DNA of 64,000 bases from Candidatus Uhrbacteria bacterium. GTDB taxonomy: Bacteria; Patescibacteriota; Patescibacteriia; UBA9934. The DNA lies in assembly GCA_963822405.1 (NCBI GenBank), contig CAWGHH010000001.1, positions 151,296 to 215,295 on the forward strand, read 5' to 3'. The position numbers and the translations under genes were made by a program. Shown piece by piece: positions 29,994 to 32,490 of the stretch; position 1 is the first letter of the stretch, and each line of letters begins with the position of its first letter. A model generated the notes under the pieces. That model had not been told where the DNA came from. It did no database searches and was given only the letters and a program-made list of their open reading frames with translations.

Positions 29994-30047
29994 AAAATGA
30001 AGAACCGCACCGTCGAGGAGCGCCGGATTGGCTCTTCGGGGTGCGGT
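29994..30047. terminator. Conserved GC-rich hairpin terminator, copy 1 (cassette 3' flank), filling the ileS / cassette-1 stop-to-stop gap
   Basis: aaaatgaagAACCGCACCgtCGAGGAGCgccggattGGCTCTTCGGGGTGCGGT; U-run on the minus strand; about 96% identical to 32008-32057. Confidence 0.6.
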
Positions 30048-31085
30048 CTAGTGACGATTGCGGAGAAGTCGATAGATCCGGAACCGGGTGTCGTGGTAGT
30101 GGTCGAGGACAAATTCTTTCGCCCTGCGCCACCAGCTCCAGGTGAGCTTGTCGGCTTGGTACAAACGTTCGCCTTCCTCTTGGTCGAGCCTGTCTTGCTC
30201 GAGGTTGCAGGCTTCGCGGTACTCGTCCTCCAGCTTTTGCAGCTCGAGGTAGCAAGTCATGTCGTACCGGAGCTCGTTGAGCCGACCCATCATATGGTAG
30301 GCAAAGCCTGCGGCCTCCCACTCGAGATCGCGCTCGCGGAGTTCTTCCGCGCCTTGAAGGTCGAGTTCGCGGTCGATCTGCTCGGTGCGATTCCACGGGT
30401 CGCGGTAGCTGTCGAGCACTTCCTCCCAATCCCGCCGTTCGATTTCGGTGAGCATCTGAGAAGTTTCGAGTTCCTCTTCCGTGAGGTAGTCGTAGAAGGA
30501 GACAGGGAGATCGTCGAGCGTGCCTTCAAGGTCTTCGTTCCTCCGAAGCAGTTCTTCCTTGCGGATCTGAGGGCTGTCATGCTCCCACTCTTCTTCGGCC
30601 TGGATCTCGAGCTCGGCGATGATCTGCGGGGAGTGGCTGAACTCTAGCCAATCATCATCGCTGTAGTCGTCGGGATCGTCGGCGTACCGCGGGTCGTTGT
30701 AGTCGGGTTCGTTATCCCAACCGTACGCGTCCTCATGGTCCCCGTCGTCGTACTCATTCATGTAGTCTCCGGGGAACATCCGGCGGTTCTCTTCGTCGAT
30801 GGCATCCTCGAGGTCAGCGAATTCACGGTTGAGACCTCGGATGCGCGGGTCATCGCACCGTACCCACTGCTCGTTGACGAGCTTTTCGAAGTGGGAATCC
30901 CAACGGACGAATCCGTCCTCGATCTCGTGGTGTCCGAGATCATCGGCGCCGAAGACTTGGCTTGGCGGATGCTTCATGCTGAGTTCACGGATATCCGTGC
31001 CCTCCCAGACCACAGACGACGTCACTTTCGTATCACCCGGCGCGAAGTCATTCTTGGTCACTTGGACTATACGGTAGCGGGTCAT
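30048..31085 (-). CDS. extremely acidic (D/E-rich) protein, 345 aa (cassette 1)
   Basis: ATG at 31085 with GGAGG 6 nt upstream; long poly-acidic runs such as DDGDHEDAYGWDNEPDYNDPRYADDPDDYSDDDWLEF; visibly GC-rich. Confidence 0.55.
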   Translation of the reverse strand: MTRYRIVQVTKNDFAPGDTKVTSSVVWEGTDIRELSMKHPPSQVFGADDLGHHEIEDGFVRWDSHFEKLVNEQWVRCDDPRIRGLNREFADLEDAIDEENRRMFPGDYMNEYDDGDHEDAYGWDNEPDYNDPRYADDPDDYSDDDWLEFSHSPQIIAELEIQAEEEWEHDSPQIRKEELLRRNEDLEGTLDDLPVSFYDYLTEEELETSQMLTEIERRDWEEVLDSYRDPWNRTEQIDRELDLQGAEELRERDLEWEAAGFAYHMMGRLNELRYDMTCYLELQKLEDEYREACNLEQDRLDQEEGERLYQADKLTWSWWRRAKEFVLDHYHDTRFRIYRLLRNRH

Positions 31086-31118
31086 TGGAACCTCCAAACG
31101 GTCGTTGAATACCATGCT

Positions 31119-31161
31119 ATTATAGCAAAAAAACGCCATTTTGTCAATGTTTTGTGGCTAA
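31119..31161 (-). promoter_or_regulatory. Near-consensus promoter of cassette 1 (TTGACA-N17-TGCTATAAT plus conserved upstream TTAGCCNCAAAACA)
   Basis: Minus strand reads TTAGCCACAAAACATTGACAAAATGGCGTTTTTTTGCTATAAT. Confidence 0.6.
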
Positions 31162-31337
31162 AGTGAGCCAAAAAGAGGGAAATGGGGATAAATTTTGACG
31201 AGGTGTCAGGAAATATGGTGGAATGTATGTACCGGGTAGGTTACCCACACGGGCTTATCCCAGGTGATACAAAAGCAAACTCCCCTTTATTGGTGGGTTT
31301 GTATTTGTTTTATGCCGAGTAAGGACTACTCCCCATT

Positions 31338-31410
31338 GGGCCCGTGCGGTAATTGGTAACCACCCCGGATTATCACCTGGGAGTTACGGGTTCAAATCCC
31401 GTCGGGTCCA
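31338..31410 (+). tRNA. tRNA-like cloverleaf (73 nt, anticodon TAT), atypical: C37, one mismatch each in the D and anticodon stems; possible pseudo- or paralogous tRNA
   Basis: Hand-folded: GGGCCCG acceptor with one G.U, U8, A14, G18G19, A21, U33, T54T55C56, T-stem ACGGG/CCCGT, discriminator A; nested in an outer stem GCCGAGT(31314)...ACTCGGC-A-CCA(31425). Confidence 0.45.
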
Positions 31411-31485
31411 CATAACTCGGCACCAACCACTCCGTCCGCAAGGGCGGAGTTTGGTTTCTGTCGAAATACGGGATATTATTCGTGC

Positions 31486-32007
31486 ATGAAAATCTATCCT
31501 CTTGAATCTTGGATGAGCCCCAAGCTCACAACAAAAAATTCGCCAGTTCATGGTGGCGGAGTTTTTGCTGTTGAACCGATTAAGCAGGGCGAGGTGTTAG
31601 TTCGATGGGGCGGAAAGGTGTACTCGACCAAACAGGTCGTTGATGGCGAGACGACCAGTCAAACAGCCTGTCAGATTGATGACGATTTATATATTGCTAG
31701 TCCGCCAGGAACAGAGCTTGTCGGTTCCGACCTCATGAATCATTCCTGTGATCCGAATACGTGGATGGATGACGAAGTGACAATTTCGGCTAAAAGGAAC
31801 ATCGCGACTGGTGAAGAAATCACCGCTGACTATGCGCTTTGGGTTGCTTATCCGGGGTATGAAACTATAGCAGATTGTCATTGCGGTTCTTCATTGTGTC
31901 GTCGTCGAGTAACAGGGGATGATTGGAAGATTCTGGAGCTTCAAGAACGGTATCAAGGCCATTTTCCACCTTACCTCCAAAAACGTATCGAACAATTATC
32001 CGTATAA
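31486..32007 (+). CDS. SET-domain protein (putative protein-lysine methyltransferase)
   Basis: SET motifs NHSCDPN and EEITADY; C-terminal Cys cluster CHCGSSLCRRR (post-SET-like). Confidence 0.75.
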   Translation: MKIYPLESWMSPKLTTKNSPVHGGGVFAVEPIKQGEVLVRWGGKVYSTKQVVDGETTSQTACQIDDDLYIASPPGTELVGSDLMNHSCDPNTWMDDEVTISAKRNIATGEEITADYALWVAYPGYETIADCHCGSSLCRRRVTGDDWKILELQERYQGHFPPYLQKRIEQLSV

Positions 32008-32057
32008 AATGAAGAACCGCACCGCGAGGAGCGCCGTGTGGCTCTTCGGGGTGCGGT
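32008..32057. terminator. Conserved GC-rich hairpin terminator, copy 2 (cassette 3' flank)
   Basis: aaaatgaagaaccgcaccgcgaggagcgccgtgtggctcttcggggtgcggt; begins immediately after the SET gene stop. Confidence 0.6.
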
Positions 32058-32065
32058 TGCGCCTG

Positions 32066-32425
32066 TTACTTGGGATGGTTGGTAATTCGTCGACAGTTGA
32101 TCTTTACGGTCGATCCGGGAGGATCCATTGATTCGATGTTGATGTTGAGCGAGTTCGCGCTCGTGAAGCTCCCGGAGACCGTCTTATCGCCGAGATCGCC
32201 GGAGACGTCTTCACCGTTGACCTTGAGTTCGTTGGTAGGCGAAGGTGCGGCGATCACAGTCGTTCCACTGCTTTGATTCTCGCACGTCCAGGTGCCGGCG
32301 ACGAGCTCGTTGAATTCGTTATCCGGTGGGTGTTGGGGTTTGAACCAGGTATTGATTATGATTCCGCTGATCAAGACGAACGAGATGCCGATGCTGTAGA
32401 CGATCGTCCTAGACTTCCAATTCAT
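32066..32425 (-). CDS. small secreted/membrane-anchored protein (119 aa) (cassette 2)
   Basis: ATG at 32425 with GGAGGA RBS; N-terminal hydrophobic segment. Confidence 0.5.
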   Translation of the reverse strand: MNWKSRTIVYSIGISFVLISGIIINTWFKPQHPPDNEFNELVAGTWTCENQSSGTTVIAAPSPTNELKVNGEDVSGDLGDKTVSGSFTSANSLNINIESMDPPGSTVKINCRRITNHPK

Positions 32426-32447
32426 GTTTCCTCCAGAAAACCTTTTC

Positions 32448-32490
32448 AGTATAGCAAAAAAACGCCCTTTTGTCAATGTTTTGGGGCTAA
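32448..32490 (-). promoter_or_regulatory. Near-consensus promoter of cassette 2 (TTGACA-N17-TGCTATACT plus conserved upstream TTAGCCCCAAAACA)
   Basis: Minus strand reads TTAGCCCCAAAACATTGACAAAAGGGCGTTTTTTTGCTATACT. Confidence 0.6.

Follow-up and report, generated by a model that had tools for sequence, protein, structure and literature searches.

Why would two genes that encode unrelated proteins be enclosed by nearly the same noncoding DNA? This question is raised by a 64-kb stretch of a Candidatus Uhrbacteria contig (the window, meaning the whole stretch that was analyzed), in which two minus-strand units of identical layout lie within positions 29994-32504, next to ileS. Each unit, which we call a cassette, consists of a promoter and 5′ untranslated region module (P), one open reading frame (ORF), and a hairpin terminator module (T), and the two ORFs are referred to as cargo 1 and cargo 2. 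A first-pass annotation, made from the letters alone, had described these units as a modular promoter-ORF-terminator system, perhaps integron-like or island-borne, rather than an ordinary duplication. We report here that P and T indeed bracket unrelated ORFs in the window and in relatives. What is new is that unrelated ORFs on a chromosome of the candidate phyla radiation (CPR) share one concertedly evolving P/T family. The explanation that we consider probable takes architecture and recombinational exchange jointly: the cassettes would be insulated units resembling the morons of phages, with shared P and T modules that are kept alike by recombination. How new genes are acquired and tried out is poorly understood in Patescibacteria, mostly uncultured bacteria with tiny genomes and a presumed host-attached life.

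Two cassettes share flanks and enclose unrelated genes

The promoters of both cassettes have the layout TTGACA-N17-TGCTATAMT, and both hairpins are followed by TTCTTCATTTT at the 3′ end. P1 contains the -35 hexamer TTGACA (31142-31147), the -10 hexamer TATAAT with a TGC extension (31119-31124), and the Shine-Dalgarno (SD) sequence GGAGGT (31090-31095), with TGGCTCACTTTAGCCA upstream of the -35 at about 31152-31167. P2 contains TTGACA (32471-32476), TATACT (32448-32453), and the SD sequence GGAGG (32430-32434), and is preceded by the terminator of an AAA_33 kinase gene. The promoter blocks had been called near-identical, and P1 and P2 do agree at 40 of the 43 positions of the block so designated; moreover, the 41-nt pattern TATAGCAAAAAAACGCCNTTTTGTCAATGTTTTGNGGCTAA has exactly two matches in the 64 kb (31121-31161 and 32450-32490), compared to 0 expected from shuffles. 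The likeness reaches 69 nt at 81% identity (31107-31175 versus 32436-32504).

In the minus sense, T1 reads ACCGCACC...GGTGCGG followed by the tail TTCTTCATTTT, and its fold has an energy of -25 kcal/mol in the minus sense and -33 in the plus sense (z about -4). Both T1 and T2 are strong folders (z -3.3 to -4.7). The claim that the cassettes share a hairpin terminator was thus upheld, whereas the identity of about 96% ascribed to the two copies was too high; they are 91-93% identical, with two small indels. The terminators had also been placed exactly between stop codons. This is true of T1, which occupies exactly the interval from the ileS stop (29991-29993) to the cargo 1 stop (30048-30050), but not of T2, which abuts the stop codon of the SET-domain gene (32005-32007) and ends 8 nt short of the cargo 2 stop (32066-32068).

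As the annotation had stated, the enclosed ORFs are unrelated to each other (BLASTP E = 0.41), and both are elevated in GC compared to their neighbors. The GC content is 0.58 for cargo 1 and 0.53 for cargo 2, with values at third codon positions (GC3) of 0.74 and 0.71, respectively, compared to a GC3 of 0.54 for ileS and 0.41 for the SET gene and an overall GC content of 0.49 for the window.

P and T form a family in related genomes

T was found in five other genomes (L004, L005, L007, L009, and L013) and P in three of these, which bore out the expectation of further copies, and the resulting alignments hold 8 P copies and 9 T copies from 6 genomes. The P consensus is CA-TTGACAAAA-N5-TTTTTTTGCTATAMT, followed by a leader with AAAGGGTTTTC and ACCGTTTGGAGG and then ATG. 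The T consensus in the minus sense is ACCGCACC-(C)GAAGAGCC-loop-...CGGTGCGG-TTCTTCNTTTT, which occurs in a long form (window, L004, L005, and L007) and a short form (L009 and L013). Conservation of the U-rich tail TTCTTCNTTTT is confined to the minus sense, and the 3′ end of a minus-strand ORF is always close to T (0-8 nt away in the window), which marks T as the predicted intrinsic terminator of that ORF. In five of the six cases read, moreover, a distance of only 0-3 nt separates T from the convergent gene's stop codon.

At least five kinds of ORF are bracketed by P and T, the cargo 1 and cargo 2 families among them. Cassette 1 of L004 carries a 74-aa membrane protein, and cassette B of L009 carries a 74-aa Cys-rich acidic protein. 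A 97-aa acidic protein of L005 has T only, and T stands at the 3′ end of other minus-strand ORFs in L005/L006/L008 and in L007. Two cassettes stand in tandem in L009, where the T tail is contiguous with the following unit's -35 (GGTGCGGTTCTTCTTTTCATTGACA), and the basic repeat of L009 reads as a tandem-array unit in which T and P are fused into one intergenic module; plus-strand genes break up the cassette array in the window and in L004.

The most informative copy is that of L013, in which P, a 255-aa homologue of cargo 1 (P0049), and T lie between parB and a relA/spoT-like gene. The P module of L013 carries the same leader boxes as P in the window, the DNA homology between the window and L013 begins in the ORF and continues into T (335 nt at 72%), and the ORF-T junction is identical in both (...RNRH-TAG-ACCGCACC). 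This parB/relA copy implies that the whole P-ORF-T unit occurs at two unrelated chromosomal sites.

P and T belong to a small family of repeats that is peculiar to one clade of Uhrbacteria-like Patescibacteria. An Rfam search with T, the leader, and a conserved tRNA-like block that lies between the cassettes matched the tRNA alone. We also noted a dispersed intergenic repeat, CTGAGCGYAGGCGAAGRRTC...AGAGGTGGGCTATTGGAA, which recurs across genomes and loci and adjoins cassette promoters (L005 12955-13005 and 15925-15950; L013 1935-1975).

P and T are conserved far above neutral sites and homogenized within genomes

Fourfold-degenerate sites of ileS are 45-55% identical between the window and its relatives, which is close to saturation. 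By contrast, identity across genomes is 70-98% for T and 72-93% for the P core, which is far above the neutral level. T1 is 98% identical to the second T of L004 (13958-14010), compared to about 48% at neutral sites of the window and L004, and T2 is 94.7% identical to L004 12863-12919. At the same time, the copies within a genome resemble each other in private states: the two window copies have the spacer xGGCG, the two L009 copies have CGTCA, and L009 has T in the short form only. The T loop variants are swapped between genomes, such that window T1 (AATCC) corresponds to L004 T2 and window T2 (ACA) to L004 T1, and members of the cargo 2 family are paired with different leader and T variants in the window, L004, and L009. 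Finally, the isoleucyl-tRNA synthetases (IleRS) of L009 and L004 are equally near that of the window (≈93%), yet T identity is 81-85% for L009 and 91-98% for L004, and the architecture of L009 differs from that of the window despite the comparable IleRS closeness. Together, the private variants, the swapped loops, the conservation of T and P, and the contrast between L009 and L004 point to gene conversion within genomes and to exchange between lineages at this locus.

These results bear on the simplest alternative, an ordinary local duplication in which one unit was duplicated long ago, the functional flanks stayed alike, and the ORFs diverged or were overwritten once, with no ongoing exchange. 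The simple tandem array of L009 with its fused T-P modules fits such a history, both cassettes predate the split of the window and L004 lineages, and the 74-aa cargo of L004 has the anchor motif of the cargo 2 family. However, cargo 1 is unrelated to cargo 2 and belongs to a family of its own with at least 69 members, a P-ORF-T unit with a cargo 1-like protein stands at a different locus in L013, and T is up to 98% identical between genomes whose neutral identity is ≈48%, with loop variants in swapped positions. Divergence alone is insufficient to account for the unrelated cargos, the L013 locus, and the identity of T combined with swapped loops, and we regard plain duplication, against which the first-pass annotation had also argued from the flanks and cargos, as unlikely.

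Gene content downstream of ileS differs among relatives

The IleRS of the window clusters with sequences of Patescibacteria and Candidatus Uhrbacteria, and the ileS neighborhood was compared among relatives with 87-96% IleRS identity. The conserved order is ileS ... AAA_33 kinase (minus strand), a 276-315-aa protein, a protein of about 350 aa, ruvA, and femAB, and the contents from ileS to the kinase gene differ in every genome examined. L005 and L006 have ileS, the SET gene, a RhuM-like gene, T, and the 97-aa ORF (-). L004 has ileS, T, the 74-aa ORF (-), P, the tRNA-like block, a 135-aa ORF (+), T, a 111-aa ORF (-), P, a 266-aa ORF (+), and more. L009 has ileS, the tRNA-like block, T, a 127-aa ORF (-), P fused to T, the 74-aa ORF (-), P, and more. 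L010 and L011 have a near-empty site with a conserved 34-aa gene alone and without the kinase gene. The first slot after ileS thus holds cargo 1 in the window and the 74-aa protein in L004, with a leader that is alignable up to the start codon. The SET gene lies directly 3′ of ileS in L005 and L006, an adjacency that had been anticipated, and is absent from L004, L009, and L010, and in L009 ileS lies directly 5′ of the tRNA-like block. Because ileS adjoins the SET gene or the tRNA-like block in these genomes, cassette 1 is extra DNA compared to the relatives. The DNA upstream of ileS is likewise variable between genomes. The region downstream of ileS is a strain-variable hotspot.

A variable, repeat-bearing locus on a metagenome-assembled contig (366 kb) is also where an assembler might join strains through short repeats, and the arrangement could in principle be a chimera formed through P and T. 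This is extremely improbable: T and P are shorter than typical reads; the Logan assembly ERR12037365 matches positions 30165-32774 at 100%, although it possibly derives from the same reads; and L004, which comes from another sample, was assembled independently with the order T-ORF-P, tRNA, gene, T-ORF-P.

Table 1. Coordinates and supporting evidence of the features described (positions in the window unless a genome is named)
Feature	Position	Strand	Evidence
T1, terminator module of cassette 1	29994..30047	-	sequence, folding, family alignments
Cargo 1 ORF, 345 aa	30048..31085	-	ORF and Shine-Dalgarno GGAGGT
P1, promoter/5′UTR module of cassette 1	31086..31175	-	sequence, alignments
Conserved tRNA-like block	31187..31457	+	ARAGORN, Rfam, identity to L004/L009
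SET-domain gene, 173 aa	31486..32007	+	Pfam PF00856, E = 2.8e-13
T2, terminator module of cassette 2, ACA loop variant	32006..32057	-	sequence, folding, alignment
Cargo 2 ORF, 119 aa, N-terminal membrane anchor	32066..32425	-	ORF and SD GGAGG
P2, promoter/5′UTR module of cassette 2	32426..32504	-	sequence, alignments
SDH-motif mini-cassette	L004 15436-15690; L005 15177-15340; L009 11940-12150; L010 10750-10960		

Two further features of this neighborhood were noted. Beside the kinase gene in four relatives, a third, conserved mini-cassette encodes a 32-36-aa peptide with an SDH motif and has a related promoter (TTGACARAAGTCRGATTTTTTGCTATGAT) and its own hairpin (Table 1); it is missing at that position in the window, which has a similar promoter at 36987-37015. 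Upstream of ileS, a low-GC (0.35-0.49) insertion at 24776-27113 (+) encodes a 450-aa AAA-type ATPase with a C-terminal helix-turn-helix (HTH)-like region and a 212-aa protein. This insertion is strain-specific: every relative lacks a counterpart and has rpiB or other genes instead. The two genes may form a defense-type pair.

The tRNA-like block between the cassettes

A tRNA-like element and the SET gene had been described between the cassettes, and both were recovered by ARAGORN, Rfam, and Pfam. The element contains a tRNA-Ile(UAU)-like gene at 31338-31411 (ARAGORN), which scores 40.5 bits against the Rfam tRNA model versus 73 bits for the canonical copy at 58657. Unlike that canonical tRNA-Ile(UAU), it has A32, C37, a weak D-stem, and no encoded CCA. 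The rest of the block comprises a promoter-like TTGACG-N18-TGGAAT, whose hexamers were read by eye, a structured leader of ≈100 nt with a terminator-like hairpin, and a terminator at 31425-31457. The block folds with a z of -4.0 and is 89% identical to L004 (13250-13528) and 91% identical to L009 (10727-10998). We considered the tRNA-like gene as the mark of an integrase-mediated island and rejected this reading, since no integrase was found among the window ORFs scanned and the block is conserved while shifting its position relative to the cassettes. The element is no demonstrable integration scar but a conserved gene with its own leader and terminator, and its position after ileS in L009 could reflect a functional link of IleRS to the tRNA-like RNA.

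Cargo proteins diverge rapidly

Cargo 1 is as acidic as had been described (pI 4.35; 94 Asp and Glu versus 41 Lys and Arg) and consists of an N-terminal domain (≈residues 1-125), an acidic linker, and a helical C-terminal domain. The N-terminal domain is confidently predicted (predicted local distance difference test scores of 93-98 for residues 1-100) and defines an uncharacterized family: the 69 homologues of cargo 1 at E ≤ 1e-3 mostly match this domain. These relatives have variable C-terminal tails, often acidic or Cys-rich, including two with zinc ribbons and one with a nucleotidyltransferase domain. The C-terminal half of cargo 1 is closest to P0049 of L013, and a helical domain is common to both. 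Searches for the function of cargo 1 returned no Pfam, PHROGs, PDB-sequence, or fold match.

Cargo 2 is a small, rapidly diverging protein with an N-terminal hydrophobic anchor. Its family comprises the 119-aa protein of the window, the 111-aa protein of cassette 2 in L004, and the 127-aa protein of cassette A in L009; amino acid identity of cargo 2 to the latter two is 41% and 27%, respectively, compared to about 93% for IleRS. Only cargo 2 itself was matched in a word-indexed search of 5.8 billion proteins, and its relatives were recovered only via synteny. The N-terminal anchor motif of this family is also present in the 74-aa cargo of L004 cassette 1. The ORFs between P and T are among the fastest-evolving sequences seen here, and all of them are rich in GC3 (0.69-0.84) irrespective of the protein encoded. 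Two origins would fit this shared composition: the ORFs may come from a distinct pool of accessory genes, or gene conversion at a recombination hotspot may have been GC-biased. As for what the cargos do, roles as acidic decoys, in immunity, or in surface variation are speculation.

Proposed mechanism and points that weigh against it

The arrangement of the modules suggests the following model. Each cassette would be an insulated, self-sufficient, monocistronic minus-strand unit with a near-consensus sigma-70 promoter, an extended -10, a short leader with a strong SD, one ORF, and a GC-rich hairpin with a U-tail. The T hairpin would end the minus-strand transcript and also cap the convergent plus-strand gene, and a terminator upstream of P would insulate each unit. 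Judging from their motifs and positions, P and T presumably act as promoter and terminator in vivo. Because differing ORFs sit between the same ≈55-100-nt modules, P and T can serve as portable homology arms, and we infer that the mechanism of exchange is homologous recombination through them. Recombination between copies within a genome would homogenize P and T in concerted evolution and could duplicate, delete, or re-order units, whereas recombination with imported DNA of relatives could exchange P and T between lineages, replace an ORF, or spread whole P-ORF-T units. Such exchange would presumably follow DNA uptake and need no dedicated integrase.

Several observations weigh against this model. 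With a length of 55-100 nt, the homology arms are close to the minimum that RecA requires to recombine DNA efficiently, and each module has only two copies within the 64-kb window. Part of the identity of the promoters is the promoter consensus of the lineage: strong promoters of the same lineage have TTGACAAAA, a T-run, and TGCTATAMT and so match ≈60-70% of the 46-nt P core, unrelated strong promoters are 52-76% identical to P over that core, and a loose core pattern matches generic AT-rich phage promoters. The identity of P1 and P2 is thus less improbable than it appears, because the lineage consensus covers part of the core, and the hairpin and the leader, more so than the promoter core, are the truly idiosyncratic shared parts. 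The T stem is invariant and therefore offers no covariation, and the case for a structure-based function of T is a thermodynamic one, because the stem never varies. In L019, moreover, a homologue of the cargo 1 N-terminal domain is flanked by bipA and an RNase H-like gene and has a promoter and a terminator unlike P and T, which implies that P and T are not obligatory companions of the cargo 1 family. Pattern scans for T and P also gave few matches. Two scans of GTDB species representatives returned 0 matches each with patterns that were too strict for the short T, the first T pattern having missed that form (L009 and L013). In JGI metagenomes, a first scan returned 0 matches, and a looser pattern returned only a second copy of the L005 locus; these patterns, too, were overly strict for the short T.

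The invariance of the T stem would also be expected if the flanks were conserved through co-regulation, that is, if P held an operator (TGGCTCAYWTTAGCCA and/or the spacer) and T were an RNA element bound by a factor. A GGCT-N-AGCC inverted repeat lies upstream of the -35 at varying distance in five P copies and occurs near other promoters as well (window 48650 and 49276; L004 15669), and the leader boxes AAAGGGTTTTC and ACCGTTTGGAGG are conserved. In addition, L007 retains T although a second hairpin intervenes before the U-tail and took it over, which hints at a role of T beyond termination. Such a regulon, however, would leave the differences in slot content between strains and the homogenization within genomes unexplained, no regulator was identified, and the L009 P copies are without the upstream repeat. 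We therefore consider co-regulation distinctly unlikely as the explanation; it is compatible with exchange through P and T rather than exclusive of it. If the flanks were merely regulatory, the locus would still be a clean case of noncoding DNA that is far more conserved than the coding DNA it encloses.

A bolder form of the preferred recombination model is that P/T is an integrase-free gene-cassette system of CPR/Patescibacteria that captures single ORFs from a GC-rich accessory pool, expresses them at once, shuffles them among slots, and moves them to other loci and lineages, with docking via homology arms or hairpin recombination sites. We put this forward only tentatively and think that it may well be wrong; if true, it would be a functional analogue of integrons for reduced genomes that depend on DNA uptake. 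A reusable P/T socket for individual fast-evolving genes, several of which encode membrane-anchored or acidic proteins, would allow rapid turnover of accessory genes at defined hotspots and would help explain how genes are expressed on arrival. P and T could also be used as sequence tags for the accessory gene pool of this clade in metagenomes, and as compact insulated expression parts for a phylum whose genetic tools are only now appearing.

Other arrays and repeats

Several other arrays and structured elements were observed. In L002, another Patescibacteria metagenome-assembled genome, about nine small plus-strand ORFs at 8170-12800, including a homologue of the cargo 1 N-terminal domain, have 7 copies of a conserved hairpin repeat between them. 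This repeat consists of CCCCCAGAG..CTGCGGGGG, a second hairpin, and an SD, and is distinct from T. This array is headed by a single strong P-like promoter, and the preceding GAGGCTAGCATTAGCCTC is the 18-mer found upstream of P in L013. Its GC content is 0.60 versus 0.55 around it, and it is integron-like in appearance, but it is without attC cores and has no integrase within 10 kb. A region resembling this array lies at window 1-4100 (-) and extends beyond the window edge. It is high in GC (0.57-0.69), and between its many small ORFs stand repeated structured leaders, which include a 94-nt repeat (3053-3146 versus 3561-3654, 86% identical) and hairpins of the type TCATCCGA...TGATCAGATGAGGACCGAT (≈1540-1600 and 2650-2700); Pfam and Rfam searches of this region gave no matches.

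A second island at 47200-49300 (-), between trpS and the RNase P RNA gene, has three or four GC3-rich units (up to 0.76). Every unit has a strong promoter and a hairpin terminator of its own, but the flank sequences differ; a TTAGCC/TAGCCACAAA element lies upstream of two of these promoters. The adjacent RNase P RNA (bacterial class A) at 46664-47160 (-) scored 83.9 bits (E = 9e-26), under the Rfam gathering threshold of 100, such that default settings miss it, and is driven by a strong promoter at ≈47185-47213. A perfect 37-nt inverted repeat (TCGAAATTTGAGTCGGATTACCTCCTAAAAATTTCTC) has arms at 18972-19008 and 61550-61586, 42.5 kb apart and each within a local palindrome. A truncated IS200-like Y1_Tnp gene (E = 3e-9, C-terminal half) at 11724-12311 (-), 18 kb from the cassettes, is surrounded by 7 hairpins headed by GTAG (GTAGGGGCCGAC...GTCGGCCC; window 10787-14657) that resemble repetitive extragenic palindromes (REPs) and form a family unlike T. 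This remnant and its hairpins look like a decayed system of REPs and REP-associated tyrosine transposases (RAYTs) in a CPR genome.

Comparison with known systems

Integron cassettes and clusters of attC sites lacking integrases (CALINs) resemble the P/T cassettes in that small ORFs of mostly unknown function and atypical composition are each followed by a conserved imperfect hairpin. Sedentary chromosomal integrons likewise have strain-variable content, and their hairpins are highly similar within one genome. Nevertheless, the suggestion of an integron-like system did not hold. Pfam scans of window ORFs of ≈70 aa or more revealed no tyrosine recombinase or other integrase, including IntI, and the syntenic block at 12.4-24 kb is housekeeping according to the Pfam tables of orthologues. 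The cores of attC sites are R'' (RYYYAAC) and R' (GTTRRRY). In the 9-copy alignment of T, the base of the hairpin offers the sole candidate for such cores (GTTCTTC/GAAGAAC), which does not conform at the RRR/YYY positions. With a near-perfect stem ahead of a U-rich tail, T reads as a terminator. Furthermore, each cassette has its own -35, -10, and SD instead of a common integron promoter (Pc), and the window cassettes are separated by plus-strand genes.

Conserved GC-rich palindromes directly after stop codons between convergent genes are also typical of REPs, bacterial interspersed mosaic elements (BIMEs), and RAYTs, and of the palindrome-associated elements (PATEs) of IS200/IS605. T differs from these in lacking a conserved GTAG head, since the bases 5′ of ACCGCACC vary (CTAG, GCAA, AAAA, GTAGT ...). 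T also belongs to the 3′ ends of a single gene class, comes together with a promoter module, and appears to be low in copy number, with 2 copies in the 64-kb window. A related alternative is that the cassette is mobile and guided by hairpins. An upstream hairpin (GAGGCTAGCATTAGCCTC in L013 and L002) and T would delimit a unit that is mobilized in single-stranded form by a trans-acting Y1/HUH transposase, as for IS200/IS605 PATEs, or by an integron-like recombinase encoded elsewhere. The occurrence of the whole unit at two unrelated loci, the abutment of T on convergent stop codons, the truncated Y1_Tnp gene with its flanking hairpins in the same window, and the L002 homologue of cargo 1 inside an array of 7 hairpin repeats would all be consistent with such movement. 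However, T has no constant GTAG or other guide motif and is unlike the hairpins beside the Y1 remnant, neither an intact transposase or integrase nor an attC core was found in the window, and comparison with the empty site of L009 gave no defined target or junction signature. We consider this mechanism very unlikely.

Correia elements of Neisseria (Correia repeat enclosed elements, CREEs) supply promoters and act as terminators or RNA-processing sites beside many genes, and P and T resemble these and other miniature inverted-repeat transposable elements (MITEs) in being short promoter- or terminator-bearing repeats near varied genes. A Correia element, one of hundreds of copies, is a single ≈100-155-bp unit that carries terminal inverted repeats and is accompanied by a TA duplication. 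By contrast, P and T are two separate modules that flank an ORF, no terminal inverted repeats joining the ends of P and T were seen in the window, and comparison of the filled sites (window and L004) with the empty site (L009) revealed no target-site duplication. In replacement-type flexible islands and orphan toxin/immunity arrays, the same slot holds differing genes that are exchanged by homologous recombination via conserved flanks, and those flanks are core genes or conserved coding segments. Here, the flanks are regulatory and ≈55-100 nt long, and the proposed exchange unit is a single ORF.

A phage connection was also sought. The proposal that the cassettes are island-borne found no support, in that PHROGs, phage records, and IMG/VR revealed no hallmarks of an island or prophage. 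PHROGs gave nothing for the cargos and weak or marginal matches (clamp-loader/HTH families) for two neighboring ORFs, and both a tblastn search of phage records and a degenerate pattern of the N-terminal domain in IMG/VR were negative for a phage origin. Two strict patterns for the modules had 0 matches in IMG/VR, and looser patterns gave chance matches only, with T in high-GC coding DNA and P in generic AT-rich strong promoters.

The closest likeness is nevertheless to phage morons. No morons are known to have one shared promoter/terminator family around unrelated ORFs or fused T-P tandem arrays, and the cassettes lie on a bacterial chromosome among ileS, tRNA, SET, kinase, ruvA, and femAB genes, without phage genes. 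A moron is an independent transcription unit of one ORF with its own promoter and factor-independent terminator, inserted between genes that adjoin each other in relatives and deviating in GC content (PMC3594210). Like morons of the HK97/HK022 type, each cassette has one ORF with its own promoter and intrinsic terminator, known here from sequence alone; cassette 1 is extra DNA between genes that are adjacent in L005/L006 and L009, and GC3 is 0.71-0.74 in the cargos versus 0.41-0.54 in their neighbors. Thus, in their predicted organization, the cassettes appear to match the definition of a moron in all but location.

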